Source of the DNA: Paracoccaceae bacterium
GTDB lineage: Bacteria > Pseudomonadota > Alphaproteobacteria > Rhodobacterales > Rhodobacteraceae
Direction of reading: 5' to 3'
Length of the DNA stretch: 60,604 nt
Assembly: GCA_009920775.1 (NCBI GenBank)
Contig: RFZI01000001.1
Span: 1-60,604, forward strand
In this document: positions 3,208 to 47,378 of the stretch, one piece after another
Position numbering within the stretch: the first letter of the stretch is position 1
Layout: each line of letters begins with the position of its first letter
The notes under the pieces: model-generated
Seen by the model: only the letters and a program-made list of their open reading frames with translations
Database searches by the model: none
Told to the model about the DNA's origin: nothing
Translations under genes and position numbers: made by a program

Positions 3208-3960
3208 ATGACCGGCCCCAAGGCACAGACGCCCGCTTACGAGATCCTGCCACTCGGGCAGGATTGCGTCCTCGTGCGCTTTGCCCGCAAGCCGGACCTA
3301 TCCGCTCTTTCGGCGGCGCAAAGGTTTCGGGCGGTCATTGCCGGCCAACAGCATTCCGAAATCACTGAGGTCGCACCATCACTGGCCTCTGTGCTTCTCC
3401 GGTTTGATCCGGGGGCAACACCTCGCGCCCGGATCGAGGTGATTGTCCAAAAGGCCTTGGCTGAATTGGGCCCTGATGCCGACCTTCCGGCGCCCACCCG
3501 CCGCTGGCATCTGCCCGTTGCTTTCGGCGCAGACGCAGGCCCCCAACTCGCAGAAGCTGCGGCGCTTGCCGGCCTGACCCAAGAGGCCGCAGTCCGGCAA
3601 ATGGTCGAGGCTGATCTGCGCGTCCTTGCCATCGGCTTTGCCCCCGGTCAGCCCTATATCGGCCTACTCCCAGACAACTGGAACCTGCCGCGCCTGTCGC
3701 AACTGACGCCCAAAGTTCCGGCCGGAGCACTTGTGGTCGCTGTGCGCCAGCTCGTGCTCTTCTGCAACGACAGCACGACAGGCTGGCGCCAGATCGGCCA
3801 AACCGGCTTTCGTCCGTTTTGGCCCCATAGCTCGACCCCGTTCCGCCTCGAGGTTGGCGATGCGATTCGAATCGAGCATGTTTCTCAAATGGACCTCGCA
3901 GCGCTCGCCCCTGAAAGAACCGAGGGTCTGGGTGGAGCACGGCTGGAAAAAACGCGATGA
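3208..3960 (+). CDS. pxpB: 5-oxoprolinase subunit B (KipI/allophanate hydrolase subunit 1 family)
   Basis: 250 aa. Family-typical RVLAIGFAPGQPYIG and VAVRQLVLFCNDSTTGW segments. Followed by pxpC and pxpA with overlapping or adjacent stops and starts. Confidence 0.75.
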   Translation: MTGPKAQTPAYEILPLGQDCVLVRFARKPDLSALSAAQRFRAVIAGQQHSEITEVAPSLASVLLRFDPGATPRARIEVIVQKALAELGPDADLPAPTRRWHLPVAFGADAGPQLAEAAALAGLTQEAAVRQMVEADLRVLAIGFAPGQPYIGLLPDNWNLPRLSQLTPKVPAGALVVAVRQLVLFCNDSTTGWRQIGQTGFRPFWPHSSTPFRLEVGDAIRIEHVSQMDLAALAPERTEGLGGARLEKTR

Positions 3961-4979
3961 CCCCCACTCTGCAAATTCTCCGCGCCGGTCCGCAGATGAC
4001 GGTTCAGGATCTGGGCCGCCCAGCCCTGACCGCGCAAGGACTTGCCACGGGTGGCGCGGCCGATCGCACGGCCCTTGCAGAAGCGGCGGCGCTCTTGAAC
4101 TTAGCTCATTTCCCGGCGGCCATCGAAATGGCGGGCATGGGGGGCGAATTTGCTGTCACATTGCCGACCCGAATCGCCCTCACCGGCGCACCGATGCGCG
4201 CCAAGGTCGATGCCAAAGAGATTGGCTGGAAACAGACCCACCTCATTTTGCCGGGGCAGAGGCTTTCGATCGGCGGGGCGCTTTCGGGGGTCTATGGCTA
4301 CCTAGCGACAGCGGGCGGCATTGCCACCGAGCCGGTTCTAGGAAGCCGCTCGACGCACCTTGTTGGAAATATCGGCCAGATCCTTGCCGCGGGTGATGGC
4401 TTGATCTTGGGGCCGGACCCCACGCCAAACGCTCCAACGGTTCGAATTACCCCCGAACCCCGCTTCTCGGGTGGCGCTGTTCGGATGATGCCTGGCCCAC
4501 AAACCGGGCTTTTCGAGAAGGCCGAGCTTGCGCGTTTTCTGGCGTCGGAGTTTGCCCGCGGCGCCGCTTCAAACCGGCAGGGCGTGAGGCTCGAGCACGG
4601 GGGTGCACCATTTCAGGCAGGCGAAGCGGCAGGCTTGGCTTCCGATTTCATCGCCGTCGGTGACGTCCAGATGACAGGCGATGGCGTGCCCTATGTCCTT
4701 CTTTCCGAATGTCAGACGATGGGCGGCTATCCCCGCATCGGAACAGTCATCGGAGCCGATCTCTCCCGCATTGCCCAGTTATCCCTTGGCGGACGGGTCC
4801 GGTTCACATTGATCAGCGTTGAGGAGGCCGATCGCCTCTATCGCTCGCCCGCGCAAATGATCGCCGAGGCGAAAAGCCGCGTCGCGCCATTGGTTCGCGA
4901 TCCAAGCGAGATTTCGGATTTGCTTGGGTATCAGCTCATCGGCGGCGTAGTCTCGGGGCGGGACGAAGAGGAATACTAG
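3957..4979 (+). CDS. pxpC: 5-oxoprolinase subunit C (KipA/allophanate hydrolase subunit 2 family)
   Basis: 340 aa. LQILRAGPQMTVQDLGRP and ECQTMGGYPRIG motifs typical of the biotin-independent carboxyltransferase-like family. ATGA overlap with pxpB. Confidence 0.75.
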   Translation: MTPTLQILRAGPQMTVQDLGRPALTAQGLATGGAADRTALAEAAALLNLAHFPAAIEMAGMGGEFAVTLPTRIALTGAPMRAKVDAKEIGWKQTHLILPGQRLSIGGALSGVYGYLATAGGIATEPVLGSRSTHLVGNIGQILAAGDGLILGPDPTPNAPTVRITPEPRFSGGAVRMMPGPQTGLFEKAELARFLASEFARGAASNRQGVRLEHGGAPFQAGEAAGLASDFIAVGDVQMTGDGVPYVLLSECQTMGGYPRIGTVIGADLSRIAQLSLGGRVRFTLISVEEADRLYRSPAQMIAEAKSRVAPLVRDPSEISDLLGYQLIGGVVSGRDEEEY

Positions 4980-42057: not shown

Positions 42058-42157
42058 AGTTGCGGCATATGCCCGCCTGCGCGGGCTGGCAAGCCTCCGG
42101 CCCCTTTTCCTGCCCCAGTTTCCTTCCTATGGTCCGCGCGAATTGAAGGAGCCCGCC

Positions 42158-42760
42158 ATGAACCCCGCCACCCACGCCCTGATCGTCATCGACGTGCAAA
42201 ACGATTTCTGCCCCGGTGGCGCTTTGGCCGTGGGGGGAGGCGACGAGATCATCGCGCCGATCAATGCGTTAATGGACCAGTTTGCAGTCACCGTCCTCAC
42301 GCAAGACTGGCACCCCAAGGGCCACTCTTCCTTCGCCTCCTCGCACGCGGGCGCCGCGCCCTTTTCGACCGTGCAGATGCCCTACGGCGAGCAGACGCTC
42401 TGGCCCGACCATTGTATCCAAGGAACCGAAGGCGCGGCCTTCCATCCCGCTCTTCGCACCGATGCCGACCTCATCCTCCGCAAAGGCATGAACCCCGCGA
42501 TCGACAGCTATTCCGCCTTCTTCGAAAACGACCGGACAACGCCCACCGGCCTCGAAGGCTATCTCCGCACCCGAGGCATCACCACCCTGACCCTCGCGGG
42601 CCTCGCCACCGATTTCTGCGTGGCCTATTCCGCCATCGACGCCGCCCGCCTCGGCTTTGCCGTCACCGTCCGCACCGACCTCTGCCGTGCCATCGACCTC
42701 GGCGGCAGCCTCGCCGCGATGACCGCCCAGATGCTCGAGGCCGGTGTCACCATCGTCTGA
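42158..42760 (+). CDS. pncA: nicotinamidase/pyrazinamidase
   Basis: ATG 42158 with AAGGAG 6 nt upstream. ALIVIDVQNDFCPGGALAV and LAGLATDFCV isochorismatase-family catalytic motifs. Confidence 0.85.
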   Translation: MNPATHALIVIDVQNDFCPGGALAVGGGDEIIAPINALMDQFAVTVLTQDWHPKGHSSFASSHAGAAPFSTVQMPYGEQTLWPDHCIQGTEGAAFHPALRTDADLILRKGMNPAIDSYSAFFENDRTTPTGLEGYLRTRGITTLTLAGLATDFCVAYSAIDAARLGFAVTVRTDLCRAIDLGGSLAAMTAQMLEAGVTIV

Positions 42761-42818: not shown

Positions 42819-44111
42819 ATGGTCGATATCGCAACCCGCGTCTGGAACCATAAGTGGAAGATCGACCCGATCGTCCGCTCGCTGATCGATACCGATTTCT
42901 ACAAGCTCCTGATGTGCCAGTCGGTCTTACGCAACAAGCCCGACACGCAAGTGACCTTCAGCCTCATCAACCGCTCCAAACATATCCGTCTGGCCGATCT
43001 GATCGACGAAGGCGAACTGCGCGAGCAGCTGGACCACATCCGCACCATCAGCCTCTCCCGCGGCGAAAGCACATGGCTGCGCGGCAATACCTTCTACGGC
43101 AAGCGCCAGATGTTCCGCCCCGATTTCATGGAGTGGTTCGAAAACCTCCGCCTGCCGCCCTATCACCTTGAAAAGCGCGACGGCCAATATGAGCTGACCT
43201 TCGAGGGCAACTGGCCCGAGGTCATGCTTTGGGAAATCCCGGCGCTAGCGGTCCTGATGGAGCTCCGCTCCCGCGCCGTCCTCAACGAAATGGCCAAGTT
43301 CGAGCTCGAGGTGCTCTACGCCCGCGCCATGGCCAAGCTCTGGGAAAAGGTCGAGCGCCTGCGCGAGATCCCCGACCTCAAGCTCGCCGATTTCGGCACC
43401 CGCCGCCGCCACGGCTTCCTCTGGCAGGACTGGTGCGTTCAGGCGCTGATGGAGGGCCTCGGAGACAAGTTCATCGGCACCTCCAACTGCCGCATCGCCA
43501 TGCGCCGCGATATCGAGGCGATCGGCACCAACGCCCACGAGCTGCCGATGATCTATGCGGCGCTGGCCGAGACCGACGACGAACTGCGCCAGGCGCCCTA
43601 CGATGTTCTGGCCGACTGGCACGAAGAGCACGACGGCAACCTGCGGATCATCCTGCCCGACACCTACGGCACCGAGGGCTTCCTCGAACGAGCCCCCGAC
43701 TGGCTCGCCAAATGGACCGGCATCCGCATCGATTCAGGCGATCCCGCGACGGGCGCCGAGATCGCCATCCGCTGGTGGCAAGAACGCGGCGAAGACCCGC
43801 GGCAAAAGCTCATCATCTTTTCCGATGGCCTCGACGTCGAGAAAATCGCCGAACTCAGCGCCCAGTTCCGCGGCCGCGCCCGCGTATCCTTCGGCTGGGG
43901 CACGCTCCTGACCAACGATTTCACCGGTCTCGTGAAAAACGACGCGCTGGCCCCCTTCAGCCTCGTCTGCAAAGCCGTCAGCGCCAACGGCCGCCCCACC
44001 GTGAAACTGAGCGACAACCCGAACAAAGCGATGGGCCCGAAGGCCGAGATCGCGCGGTATAAGCGGGTGTTTGGCGTGGGTGAACAGGTGGCGCGGGAGG
44101 TTAGGGTTTAG
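42819..44111 (+). CDS. pncB: nicotinate phosphoribosyltransferase
   Basis: 430 aa. [17 protein letters not shown] and GTNAHELPM motifs. Confidence 0.9.
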
Positions 44112-44635
44112 GGAAGGCTCGCCAAATCAGACTTTACCGATTGCAGCGTTTGCTCAAACGACAAATTGCGGCTCGCGGAACTGCAAACTGACCTTGAAAT
44201 CATCGCGGCCTGCAACTCTTCAAAGCCAATTTTCGAAGTCTTGTGAAGCCAATAGGCTACCTCAAACCAGTCCCAAAGTGGGCTAGCAGTAGTTATTCGA
44301 GCAACAGGTTTTGGAAAACCCTGGCCTCTCTGACCCCTTTCGTAAAGCGAAATAGCGGCCTTGCTCATAGAAGCACGAGCGGCGATGTCGGAAGCGGTAA
44401 CTAGAAAATCGGGCTCAAATCTTACTGGCTTTGCCCCCGCTGCGTTCAAGCTCTGGTAGGCGGATAGAACGGCGTCTAGATAGCTAGTAGCCTCTCGCGC
44501 AAAGCTAAGCGTGAGTGCCCCATGTTGAACAGCGATTGTTGCGTCGTCACACCCTGCGTCAAACAAGGCATCTTCAAAGCCAGGATCTTCGGGGTCCAGG
44601 CCGTCGATTACAAATGTAAACTCAAAGGTCGGCAT
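44108..44635 (-). CDS. DNA-binding protein, putative antitoxin (N-terminal HicB-like fold plus C-terminal HTH)
   Basis: 175 aa. [40 protein letters not shown] then [24 protein letters not shown] (HTH). Visibly lower GC than flanks. 14-bp overlap with the upstream small ORF. Confidence 0.5.
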
Positions 44636-44888
44636 TCGAATGGTCTCCTCCGCAGGTGCACCTGTCGACTACCCGACAAATGTCCTTCGCATGGTTCTCC
44701 GCATTTCTAGGTGTTGACCACACCGAGACACGACAGCCAGAGCGGTCCGCATACGGGCAATAGAGTCTGCCCCATACGTGTGTATGACCCGTCGCAATTT
44801 CGATCCGCCAACCTCTACTTTCCGCATGAGAAATCGCTGCCTCTAGGTGTTTGTTCTTGTGTCGCCTTCTAGCCACTTCGTTCCTCAT
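44622..44888 (-). CDS. small HicA-like putative toxin (alternative 128-aa form starting at 45008)
   Basis: 88 aa from ATG 44888. LEAAISHAESRGWRIEIATGHTHVWGRLYCP...VSVWSTPRNAENHAKDI resembles the HicA/YcfA pattern (xxGW..GSH....P....V.xTP). An upstream in-frame ATG at 45006-45008 overlaps the arfB stop (TGATG). Confidence 0.35.
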   Translation of the reverse strand: MRNEVARRRHKNKHLEAAISHAESRGWRIEIATGHTHVWGRLYCPYADRSGCRVSVWSTPRNAENHAKDICRVVDRCTCGGDHSNADL

Positions 44889-45007
44889 ATCGGGAAAGTG
44901 TAAACAAAAGTCAACACCCCTGTTCTCGAGTCCTCTTGGATCGATAGTTGACCTATGGTCATCACAGGTTAGGTGAACACCACACCCAAAAGCAACCTTG
45001 GGTTGCA

Positions 45008-45424
45008 TCACCCCACCTTCCCCCGCAACGCCTTCACCTCTCCGCGCTCCTTCTTCGCCTTGATCCGCCGTTCGATGCTGCCCTTGGTCGGCTTGGTCTT
45101 CACCCGCCGTTTCGGCGTCACGGTGGCTTTCAGCACCAGTTCCGCCAGCCGCTCTCGTGCGATCTCGCGGTTGCGGGCTTGGCTGCGGGTGTCTTGCACG
45201 AAGATCACGATGGCGCCGTCGAGGGTCCAGCGGCTCCCCGCTAAACGCTTCAACCGGCGCTTCACCGGATCGGGCAGGTTCGGGCTGCGCTCGGCCTCGA
45301 AGCGCAGCTCGACCGCGGTCGAGACCTTGTTCACATTCTGCCCGCCGGGGCCCGAGGCGCGGACGAATTGCTCGGTCAGCTCCCAGTCGGCGATCTCGAT
45401 CTGATCGGTGATTTTCAGGCCCAT
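45008..45424 (-). CDS. arfB: alternative ribosome-rescue factor ArfB (peptidyl-tRNA hydrolase, GGQ domain)
   Basis: Start at MGLKITDQIEI (ATG 45424). 138 aa, SGPGGQNVNKVSTAV GGQ motif and a basic C-terminal tail (KRRVKTKPTKGSIERRIKAKKERG). Confidence 0.9.
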   Translation of the reverse strand: MGLKITDQIEIADWELTEQFVRASGPGGQNVNKVSTAVELRFEAERSPNLPDPVKRRLKRLAGSRWTLDGAIVIFVQDTRSQARNREIARERLAELVLKATVTPKRRVKTKPTKGSIERRIKAKKERGEVKALRGKVG

Positions 45425-45494
45425 CGGCGCACATCCAATTTTGTACAAACCAGACAATAGGCCTTTCAGCCCTTGTACAAAACGCTCATTTTCC

Positions 45495-45530
45495 AACGAA
45501 AAGGGCCGCTCCGGCGATGGAGCGACCCTT
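45495..45530 (-). terminator. rho-independent terminator (minus strand) upstream of arfB
   Basis: Minus-strand GGGUCGCUCC-aucgcc-GGAGCGGCCC (10-bp stem, one mismatch) followed by UUUUCGUU. Confidence 0.6.
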
Positions 45531-45742
45531 CGAAAGTTCAGGAGGTGGTTCGGTTAGGGAAACCCCACCCCGGTGGTCTCGTCAGCCAAGGGCTGCCTCA
45601 GCTACGACTCCCCCGAAATGTCCCGACACCTTTCTCCAATCTCTTTCTCGACACTGGATCACCTCCTTTCAATGGGTTTCGCCTAAGAGGAGGTTTGCAC
45701 AGATATTGTGTATGTCAAATGAAAATACACAATTTGGCGTGA

Positions 45743-46384
45743 TCAGGCCTTCTGCTGAATCATTCTGCCCACAAAAAGGCGGAACGGGACGAGGGCGATG
45801 ATGGCGATCGCCAGCTTGACGCCCCAGTCGGCCACGGCGAGCGAAACCCAGAGCGGCGCATCCGGTCCGGTGGTCAGGAACGGCGCGGCCTCCCAAGCCC
45901 ACGAGACCTCGTCATTCGCCGCCGCCGAGAACAGCGTGGCAAAGGTCGCCGAGAAGGCCAGCGAGAAGAAGATGACCGTATCGACGACCGACGAGACAAG
46001 CGTCGAGACCAGCGGCGCGCGCCACCAGCTGCCATCGCGCAAGCGGTTAAACACAGCAACATCAAGGAGTTGGGCGGCAAGGAAGGCGGTGGCCGAGGCG
46101 ATGGCCACGCGGAAGGCCACGGCGGCATAGGTATAACCGTCACCCTCAAGCATGATCTGGCTGCCGATCAGCGAGCAGACGATGCCGACGACGAAACCGG
46201 CCAAGATCACGCGGCGGGCCGAGGCCGGGCCATAGACGCGGTTCATGATGTCGGTCACGAGGAAGGCGAAGGGATAGGTGAAGGCGCCCCAGGTGAGGAG
46301 GCCGTCGAGAAGGAGGAATTGAACGAGGATGTTCGAGGCCACCACGATGATGGCCATGGCGATAACGCCGGGCAGGATACGCAT
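45743..46384 (-). CDS. yhhQ: queuosine-precursor transporter YhhQ (VUT/DUF165 family)
   Basis: 213 aa, 6 TM. TYPFAFLVTDIMNRVYG and DTVIFFSLAF motifs of the YhhQ family. Confidence 0.85.
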   Translation of the reverse strand: MRILPGVIAMAIIVVASNILVQFLLLDGLLTWGAFTYPFAFLVTDIMNRVYGPASARRVILAGFVVGIVCSLIGSQIMLEGDGYTYAAVAFRVAIASATAFLAAQLLDVAVFNRLRDGSWWRAPLVSTLVSSVVDTVIFFSLAFSATFATLFSAAANDEVSWAWEAAPFLTTGPDAPLWVSLAVADWGVKLAIAIIALVPFRLFVGRMIQQKA

Positions 46385-46387
46385 AGG

Positions 46388-46424
46388 GTGCTCCGTTTTT
46401 TACAAGGGTGCGGCGACTTGGCCC
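46388..46424 (-). promoter_or_regulatory. preQ1-I-like riboswitch in the yhhQ leader
   Basis: Minus-strand RNA CAAG-UCGCCGCACC-CUUG-UAAAAAACGGAG-cacccu-AUG. It has a 4-bp P1, a 10-nt loop (compare UCGCAGUAAC of the T. tengcongensis aptamer), ACCC before the 3' P1 strand and an A-rich tail. Loop CCG can pair with tail CGG (P2), overlapping the GGAG SD. Confidence 0.55.
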
Positions 46425-46467
46425 CCACCATGGGGACGCGCCCCTCTACGCCCGAGAGGGGGCTTCG

Positions 46468-47378
46468 TCAATCGGTGACGACGAACTCGACGAACTCGGT
46501 TTTCTGAATGGCCAGAAAGTTGTTGTCGGAAACGGTCGTCAACCGGAGGCGCCCCTCGCCATCCCGCCATGCCGAAATGCCTTCGAGATTGTCGTACTCC
46601 CAAGGCGCCGAGACCATCAGCGTCTCGGTCGCGCCATCCGCGAGGTCCATGCGCCGTATGCGCGAGCGGAAGCCAACGCCGACGAAATCCCGTTCGAGGA
46701 TATAGCGATAGCCGTCCGGCCCGACGTCGGCGCCAGTTATGAGAAAAGGGCCATCGCGGCTGAGTTCGCGCAGGACGGACTAGCGGGTGCCATCAAAGCG
46801 ATAGATAGGAAAGTCCTTGTCGAACCGGCCCGACCTCTCGGGCATAGTCAATAGGGCGCCGTCAGCCGCCGCCAAAGACTCCAGACTGGCGTTATTCTGC
46901 ATTTGTGCAAACTCGCGGCTGAGTTTGATCTCGGTTGGGACCGCATCGGGCGAAGCGTAGTGCCATACGCGCGCCGGCCCTTCGAAGCTACCGAGAAACC
47001 GCCCAGCCCGTCGAGAACAAGTCCTTCGCTATCGTCGTCGTCCTCCGAGAGGGGCTGTCCGTCCAACCCTAGAAGGTTGGTTTCGGCAGTGGCGCTCACT
47101 CCTTCAATACCGGCTGAAGTTCGCAGGAGCCGGCCCTGAACAAGGCGTCCCCGGTCCATTAGGACTGTGAGAGCAAGGCCATCCTCCCCAACCTCAAGCG
47201 CCGAGAAACCACCAAGTTCGGGGTTGTCGGTCTGCCAATGAAACCGGCTCAGAAGGCGGGCTTCCGCCGCCGAGGTGGCTTGCCCGGCAAAGAGTAGGGC
47301 TGCGCAAAGCGCATATCTGGTGATCAGGTGGATAGGTCTGGTCCTATTCGGCCTCGGCCCACGAGCCCTTTTCGCCAT
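46468..47378 (-). pseudogene. esterase-like-activity-of-phytase family secreted protein, frameshift plus premature stop
   Basis: ORF 46848-47378 (signal peptide, ..GGFSALEV..DSEGLVLDGLGGFSV) loses frame near 46987. The shifted frame reads FEGPARVWHYASP..MQNNASLESLAA..YRFDGTR-TAG(46780-46782)-SVLRE and joins ORF 46468-46650 (..EGISAWRDGEGRLRLTTVSDNNF). Confidence 0.7.

Follow-up and report, generated by a model that had tools for sequence, protein, structure and literature searches.

A two-gene PDC-M06 cassette between pncB and arfB in a Paracoccaceae bacterium: probably an autonomous module of HicAB-like toxin-antitoxin architecture

The 60,604-nt stretch of Paracoccaceae bacterium DNA analysed here (the window) contains, between the convergent core genes pncB and arfB, a short segment of low GC-content with two overlapping genes, A (encoding the small protein P0001) and B (encoding the 175-aa protein P0002), and the question raised by this locus is whether the pair is functionally tied to arfB or only lies beside it. 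HicA toxins cleave mRNA, and ArfB acts on the non-stop ribosome complexes that result. The original prediction for this DNA, which took A for a HicA-like toxin and B for a HicB-like partner, proposed that arfB, toxin and antitoxin form one operon, and with it a self-contained circuit of damage and rescue. Our analysis points elsewhere: the module is very probably autonomous and its adjacency to arfB incidental, and the locus as a whole is likely to be a horizontally acquired cassette of the PDC-M06 family (PDC, phage defence candidate) with the overall architecture of a HicAB-like type II toxin-antitoxin (TA) system.

The physical description in the original prediction was accurate. The segment measures 896 nt (44112-45007), and in 200-nt windows its GC-content is 0.48-0.54 across 44100-44999, compared with 0.64-0.68 in 43300-43999 and 45000-45399. 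The small gene A comes first, its end sharing 14 nt with the start of B on the same strand, and the stop codon of B overlaps that of pncB. Read from its ATG, the small open reading frame (ORF; 44622-44888, minus strand) encodes 88 aa including 7 His and 5 Cys, and the spacer from arfB to ATG 44888 is 131 nt. The sequences TGATG at the arfB stop, TTGACT and TGACC-ATA-GGTCA all lie where they had been placed (Table 1).

Table 1. Features of the pncB-arfB region, in window coordinates
Feature	Position	Strand	Remarks
pncB	42819..44111	+	NF003704, 5.9e-149, 496 bits against a cut-off of 379; core gene flank, convergent with the module
Gene B	44108..44635	-	175 aa; putative antitoxin and autorepressor
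Gene A	44622..44876	-	84 aa from GTG 44876; 88 aa if from ATG 44888
-10-like hexamer GATATG	44886..44891	-	17 nt after TTGACT; putative role
Imperfect palindrome TGTTGACTTTTGTTTACA	44899..44916	-	predicted family-conserved operator; left half TTGACT (44909-44914) is the -35-like box
Palindrome TGACC-ATA-GGTCA	44949..44961	-	local feature; G001 keeps the arms, centre base differs
Hairpin GCAACC-CAA-GGTTGC, then TTTTGGGTGT (T-rich tail)	44982..45006	-	directly after the arfB stop; terminator-like; overlaps the proposed upstream ATG
Variable slot	44112..45007		pncB stop to arfB stop; other DNA there in sister genomes
arfB	45008..45424	-	NF006718, 3.5e-55, 185.5 bits against a cut-off of 100; RF-1 domain 3.6e-23; core gene, outside the module

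The neighbourhoods of related loci bear most directly on the question. An alignment of B, run against 185,579 species genomes, yielded no fewer than 567 relatives, of which the 80 best-scoring loci, mostly from Alphaproteobacteria, were kept. An A-like ORF lies directly upstream of B on the same strand in 76 of the 80, the same order as in the window; arfB, sought with tblastn, is within 5 kb on either side of none of them. Nor does it occur within 1.5 kb on either side at any of six loci from a survey of the organism's own family, which took one genome for each of 200 genera. Among 31 close relatives the arrangement arfB-A-B is confined to a single genome, G001, whose DNA is 97% identical. 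Of the papers found on HicA and ArfB together, none concerns gene linkage to judge by its title.

It is the space between the core genes that varies. In the sister genomes G002, G004 and G005, identity to the window ends exactly at the stop codons of pncB and arfB (DNA matches of G002-G005 break at 44112/44113 and 45008/45014, query positions 513/514 and 1409/1415), and unrelated DNA of 1301, 1364 and 858 nt respectively fills the gap. That of G002 is PDC-M34, comprising a DUF5343 protein and an Swt1-like HEPN protein, the latter in two ORFs, and those of G004 and G005 contain unknown ORFs. Beyond the genus, the same gap holds an Old-family nuclease in two ORFs (G010), ParD/ParE with a second ParD (G011), or housekeeping genes (NUDIX and PHO4 in G016, APH and an aminotransferase in G007). 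In this genus, and in G010 and G011, the pncB-arfB gap is a swap-prone slot for small TA or defence cassettes, which explains both the low GC-content of the segment and its adjacency to arfB. No tRNA was found in 43800-46500 and no att-like or integron-like boundary at the insert, and the window's 60.6-kb contig carries no integrase; flanking direct and inverted repeats are chance-like, the inverted repeat I2 being 29 nt long, 72% complementary and located inside both core genes. The divided genes of two of these cassettes may reflect frameshifts or assembly errors: PDC-M34B/Swt1-HEPN in G002 (L011 1026-2234) is split into 86 and 87 aa that cover model halves 4-86 and 106-191, and the Old nuclease in G010 (L013 835-2629) into two overlapping ORFs of 427 and 222 aa.

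At the sequence level, what might tie A to arfB is the TGATG, in which an in-frame ATG overlaps the arfB stop, and the frame is indeed open from 45008 to gene A in both the window (G000) and G001. However, this ATG reads ATA in G001, the sole other genome with the arrangement. Over the 120 nt between the upstream ATG and ATG 44888 the two genomes differ at one synonymous and five non-synonymous sites, compared with two and one in A and five and three in B, and the would-be extension thus behaves as a non-coding spacer. Relatives of A begin MARxRH where A has GTG 44876, and in the database A is likewise called as 84 aa. Taken with the conserved spacing from the upstream motif described below, this makes GTG 44876, rather than ATG 44888 or ATG 45008, the probable real start of A. 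Directly after that stop is the terminator-like hairpin of Table 1, with a fold energy of -9.2 kcal/mol in a 37-nt context; the terminator scan gave two sites against 2.5 expected in shuffles, which is not significant alone. A 270-aa ORF (44622-45434, minus strand), which passes through arfB in another frame, was considered as a gene and rejected; only its last 84-88 codons are conserved, and it arises as an artefact from the high GC-content and the open spacer.

The would-be extension also houses what appear to be the module's own control signals. Within 100 nt upstream of A, the motif TTGAC-N4-5-GTNNAC is found in 73 of the 76 loci, with the consensus GTTGACAtnTGTtaACa, that is, the palindrome GTTGACA-N-TGTyAAC; the palindrome is perfect (GTTGAC-N4-GTCAAC) in 24 of the 73, and the distance from TTGAC to the start codon of A is fixed, with a mode of 40-41 nt. 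In the 1.416 Mb scanned the motif has only 103 occurrences, counted over both strands, a palindromic copy scoring on each; in the organism's own 2.44-Mb assembly it has six. The window's copy, at 44900-44914, is 38 nt before GTG 44876. By this pattern of conservation, TTGACT is the left half of a predicted family-wide operator that doubles as a -35 box. The hexamer GATATG follows it by 17 nt (an ATA core is the one most often seen at this offset in relatives, in 18 of the motif-carrying loci) and would place the start of transcription at about 44878-44881, a few nucleotides from the GTG, so that the transcript may be leaderless or nearly so. A scan for consensus promoters gave one site, inside gene B, and not the TTGACT/GATATG pair. 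The TTGACT of the original prediction is therefore real as part of a wider motif. Its palindrome TGACC-ATA-GGTCA is found in none of 75 related upstream regions; the 131-nt spacer contains four palindromes with five-bp arms against 1.05 +/- 1.1 in shuffles, 15 of 500 of which reach four.

Contigs from four RNA-library runs (metatranscriptomic, from three studies, with DNA carry-over possible) cover the module. One of 622 nt spans 44259-44880, another of 289 nt (44519-44807) bridges the A/B overlap with no differences, and two more cover 44099-44545 and 44663-44859. No contig of the four runs spans 44888-45010, the module contigs ending at 44880 and 44859 and an arfB contig at 45011; because contigs are assembled, these ends are no evidence of separate transcripts.

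What kind of module is this? Six PADLOC models of PDC-M06A recognise A, the best at 8e-28 (94.7 bits) over positions 2-80 of its 87, and the PDC-M06B model recognises B at 6.6e-23 over positions 4-148 of its 174. The PDC collection comprises 145 single- or multi-gene candidates, chosen for homologues embedded in BREX, DISARM or type I restriction-modification (RM) loci, as its main text describes (Payne et al., bioRxiv 10.1101/2024.01.29.577857). The label 'PDC-M' is absent from the main text of that preprint (bioRxiv 10.1101/2024.01.29.577857), and since PDC-M06 is not in that text, its link to the preprint rests on the database name in PADLOC-DB v2; we found no mention of 'PDC-M06' in the literature. 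A also matches phrog_5923 of PHROGs (unknown function, 1.1e-17), and neither Pfam (at E<=1) nor NCBIfam has a family for it. The small ORF is conserved: a profile of 27 sequences retrieves 1127 representative clusters with E<=0.001, of which 481 reach E<=1e-10. Across these 27 sequences the SVWSTP motif, W39 and C44 are invariant, H10, K13, E16, G26, W27, H35, G40, P45 and C52 are near-invariant, and H35 is present in at least 90%.

The AlphaFold2 (AF2) model of A has the order alpha-beta-beta-beta-alpha, with a predicted local distance difference test (pLDDT) score of 78. Among 48,161 representative PDB chains, HicA takes four of the top five places (5yrz_D, Z 4.5; 4p78_D, 4.4; 6g26_E, 4.2; 1whz_A, 4.1), and in a re-ranked Foldseek list HicA proteins of four species stand at ranks 1, 2, 3 and 5 (Z 4.5, 4.4, 4.1 and 3.8); the superpositions on these chains have root-mean-square deviations of 2.8-3.4 A over 54-60 aligned residues of 57-66. 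The fold of HicA is dsRBD-like, and its catalytic His lies at the start of strand beta2; H35 of A falls opposite the HicA G-S-H only in a local hhalign alignment that is non-significant. From the model, A is probably HicA by fold, and we refer to it as a putative HicA-fold toxin, but it is not a member of the HicA sequence family. The original description of A as HicA/YcfA-like thus survives as to topology and best, albeit weak, structural matches and fails at the level of sequence. About half of the relatives of A carry a CRCGEFC insert between C44 and C52, in the beta2-beta3 hairpin, which gives a cluster of 4-5 Cys resembling a zinc knuckle; the window's protein is a short form with C44 and C52 only.

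B is modelled with higher confidence (AF2, pLDDT 95.2). Residues 1-75 form a beta-alpha-beta-beta-alpha-beta domain that contains an invariant AGCDDA motif (residues 27-32), and the C-terminal part consists of a helix-turn-helix (HTH; helices 81-87 and 92-99), a small wing and three more helices, so that B carries a predicted DNA-binding domain. In Pfam and NCBIfam only sub-threshold HTH matches are seen, the best being HTH_31 (E 0.011, residues 79-104). The N-domain resembles HMA, ACT and Lrp-type ferredoxin-like domains most closely (Z 5.6-7.4), and no HicB chain is among the 50 rows listed; the HTH of the original prediction is therefore upheld, and its 'HicB-like fold' stays unsupported. 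Foldseek of B against the PDB gave no match at E<=0.001 and one weak MerR-type row.

The pairing of the two proteins, which had also been proposed, finds support in a predicted complex. Three runs of the model of A with B scored 0.81, against 0.01 for the best of three controls; 116 of 157 complexes with solved structures attain the mark applied to this score, as do 2 of 215 mismatched pairs, counts that hold only roughly for A and B because the alignments were our own. At least 94% of contacts agree between the runs, with partner pLDDT of at least 81. In the model, residues 19-46 of B (the AGCDDA loop and the strands that follow) meet residues 36-38, 50-62 (SVWSTP) and 65-77 of A, and these interface residues are the most conserved of both families. 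Since HicAB complexes have been solved, likeness of fold may contribute to the score, although the PDB-sequence profile searches found no sequence similarity of A or B to those complexes. Overall, the model supports binding of A by the N-domain of B.

The four loci that break the pairing are a contig end, a C-terminal remnant of A (L086, ~3440-3560, where the last ~20 codons of an A-like frame remain beside an orphan B), an operator without A (L083, ~4938-4952, with an operator-like palindrome 63 nt upstream of an orphan B), and a locus with neither. The survival of B without A fits the logic of a toxin and its antitoxin; the search was seeded with B, and so was unable to find A without B.

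The distribution of the module is that of a mobile element. Within the organism's own family, B-like matches occur patchily, in 7 of 201 genomes including the window's own; one is full length and four match the N-domain only, in variants of 190-213 aa, and in all five an A-like gene is directly upstream. Two of these loci (L120 1209-2076 and L123 1246-2071) combine a CRCGEFC-type A with a 190-213-aa partner that shares only the N-domain of B, having the motif EAGFEDA in place of AGCDDA and a different C-terminal part; the next gene in L123 resembles the C-terminus of a conjugative coupling protein, a label taken from reading the translation. Among the 80 loci, 13, all in Sphingomonadales-type records, have a co-oriented P4-type integrase 17-157 nt upstream of A, but 66 have none within 5 kb. 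Other neighbours include gene transfer agent (GTA) or phage tail genes, transposases and core genes such as secY-adk and glmS. B homologues are present in five phage records (SSU5, two; Cyrano, one; Gordonia phage Agueybana, two) and in 342 plasmid records (Escherichia 114, Enterobacter 82, Yersinia 63), of which 309 are predicted to be non-mobilizable; in the plasmid collection searched, non-mobilizable plasmids of ~100 kb and phage-plasmids of the SSU5 type are the most frequent carriers. The cassette is horizontally acquired, mobile and very probably autonomous, and the original view of a two-gene, toxin-first module with promoter signals of its own is consistent with what is seen across the family.

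In the mechanism that we propose, A would be a toxin of HicA fold and most likely an RNase that uses the region of its near-invariant His35, although we give RNase chemistry as such only an even chance. The ferredoxin-like N-domain of B would cap A through the AGCDDA and SVWSTP surfaces, and the C-terminal HTH of B would bind the palindrome over the -35 box, so that the pair represses its own, probably leaderless, transcript. If B were degraded by proteases, lost together with the carrier DNA or depleted by phage shut-off, A would be freed. The cassette itself occupies a recombination hot spot for small defence and TA cassettes between convergent pncB and arfB, and its place beside arfB is very probably a matter of position and not of function. 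Promoter, leaderless start and autorepression are here read from sequence conservation only, and we infer the toxicity of A and a biological role in addiction or abortive infection.

Several results weigh against such an interpretation. All structural Z-scores for A are below 5, a range common among unrelated small folds, and Foldseek of A against the PDB gave no match at E<=0.001 (6g26_F reaches a TM-score of 0.62 on the target); against BFVD there was one unnamed match at 9.8e-4, with rows named 'HicA-like toxin' only at E 0.07-0.7, and the ESM Atlas returned only 'hypothetical protein' clusters. Pfam HicA_toxin (PF07927) gives nothing for A at E<=1, and a search of the organism's own genome with PF07927 found no matches, whereas it did match in 10 of the 41 relatives and in 7 of the 14 controls. 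When the alignment of A was compared by hhalign with nine bona fide HicA proteins the probability was 4.8%, over 23 columns comprising helix 1, strand 1 and the G-x-H turn only. A profile search of PDB sequences with A found nothing relevant, the rows for A and B being at chance level (thioredoxin reductase 0.33, TBP 0.22). For B, no HicB chain appears among 50 rows, an absence that does not prove the folds to be different. The complex score expresses a model's confidence and is not a measurement. Finally, 8 of 147 immediate-neighbour ORFs match PADLOC models at E<=1e-8 (77 loci, three near-duplicate loci dropped, ORFs taken from a crude longest-ORF caller), which amounts to a modest association with defence islands.

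Three other explanations of the locus deserve consideration, beginning with the arfB operon itself, in which translation of A would be coupled through TGATG and ArfB would resolve the non-stop complexes made by the toxin. The co-orientation of the three genes, the open frame and the known activities of HicA-like mRNA interferases and ArfB, if A is indeed such an interferase, all suit this idea, but it has to contend with the absence of arfB within 5 kb of the 80 related loci and within 1.5 kb of the six from the family, the sharing of the arrangement with G001 alone among 31 relatives, the exchange of unrelated cassettes in the same gap in G002, G004, G005, G010 and G011, the loss of the ATG in G001, the position at which relatives of A begin, the hairpin, and a conserved promoter/operator within the very sequence that coupling would have translated. 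It is largely refuted on synteny, and we consider it extremely unlikely. A different possibility is that B is an AlpA- or excisionase-type regulator or a recombination directionality factor, with A a non-toxic accessory and the whole a stranded remnant of an integrative element. B does match phrog_2620, 'excisionase and transcriptional regulator', at 2.3e-29; its SSU5 homologue is annotated likewise, with a faint Phage_AlpA match (E 0.084), and the integrases found beside A in some loci would fit. Yet most loci, and the window's contig, lack such an integrase, P0002 itself has no Phage_AlpA match at E<=1, and the conserved core of the family is A with the B N-domain while the DNA-binding part varies. 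Together with the HicA-like best fold matches of A and the occurrence of B without A (the converse being beyond the reach of a B-seeded search), this makes the remnant an improbable account.

The remaining alternative concerns purpose rather than mechanism, and holds that the main role of the cassette is anti-phage defence by abortive infection and not the addiction or stabilisation of mobile DNA. Both proteins match PDC-M06, and the PDC homologues were found within BREX, DISARM and type I RM loci according to the main text of the preprint; the same slot holds PDC-M34, Old and ParDE in relatives, and Dsr1, a DRT reverse transcriptase and Lamassu LmuA are clear defence neighbours at three loci. 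Against this, the 145 PDC systems are described in that text as candidates only, PDC-M06 was not found in the literature, few neighbouring ORFs match defence models, and with ~100-kb non-mobilizable plasmids and SSU5-type elements as the commonest plasmid carriers addiction is at least as plausible. Defence as the principal role therefore seems to us somewhat unlikely. We return to the reading of an autonomous, horizontally acquired PDC-M06 cassette of HicAB-like architecture, and would advance only tentatively, as a possibility, the broader proposition that PDC-M06 is a distinct TA family: a HicA-fold, Cys-knuckle, SVWSTP toxin capped by a ferredoxin-like AGCDDA domain instead of HicB, with leaderless transcription from a promoter that has its -35 box embedded in the operator of the antitoxin, and serving phage-plasmids, mini-integrative elements and chromosomal hot spots for addiction or abortive infection, with the pncB-arfB gap of this marine genus as one dedicated hot spot of this kind.

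The nicotinamidase gene pncA (NF008623, 1.7e-61; window 42143-42760) adjoins pncB, and a queuosine-precursor transporter (TIGR00697, 2.1e-28; window 45743-46384) lies beyond arfB; nothing mobile was seen beside the core neighbours on the pncA side or on the queuosine-transporter side. Directly upstream of arfB (45502-45678, minus strand) is a full-length, sub-threshold match to Rfam RF01867 (Caulobacter sRNA CC2171), with 41.3 bits against a gathering score of 75 and an E-value of 1.2e-6; contigs cover ~45592-45670 in all four RNA-library runs, and the match may represent a conserved small RNA or else a leader of arfB.

The idea of a hard-wired circuit of toxin and ribosome rescue fails at this locus, and we see no reason to pursue it. 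What the locus offers is a clean example of a small defence or TA hot spot whose limits are precisely the stop codons of a pair of convergent core genes, and a first anatomical description of PDC-M06, a widespread candidate family without a Pfam model. That description covers the fold, the predicted interface between the invariant motifs, the putative operator over the -35 box and the likely leaderless start, and it makes the family, with its 1127 representative clusters and 342 plasmid records, directly testable.

Set beside known systems, the window's pair shows no difference in architecture from PDC-M06, matching both component models with genes that are adjacent, co-oriented and ordered A before B. 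Its resemblance to HicAB, as represented by the solved complexes 4p78, 6g26, 5yrz and 6hpb, is of a more general kind: the genes overlap in toxin-first order, A is a toxin-sized alpha-beta3-alpha protein whose best PDB matches are HicA chains, B as modelled joins an N-terminal toxin-binding domain to a C-terminal DNA-binding domain, and in the predicted complex the B N-domain lies over the conserved face of A. In contrast to HicA, A lacks a Pfam HicA_toxin match, aligns with negligible hhalign probability, and has its own invariant SVWSTP and Cys pair, with a CRCGEFC insert in many relatives; and the N-domain of B, which had no HicB chain among the rows listed for it, is ferredoxin-like and carries AGCDDA. 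Relatives of the pair are also described on phages. CYRAN_51/CYRAN_50 of the Escherichia phage-plasmid Cyrano and SSU5_055/SSU5_054 of Salmonella phage SSU5 belong to the same two-gene family, CYRAN_51 being 50% identical to A (3e-22) and the phage homologues of B 40% identical over 78-82% of its length; in Cyrano the homologue of A carries the annotation 'HicA toxin protein' and that of B 'putative antitoxin HicB', and the Cyrano study lists the pair among morons transcribed in the lysogen (PMC9928086). The Cyrano and SSU5 pairs reside on phage-plasmids of ~100 kb beside replication and recombination genes, whereas the copy described here is lodged between chromosomal core genes of a marine bacterium.

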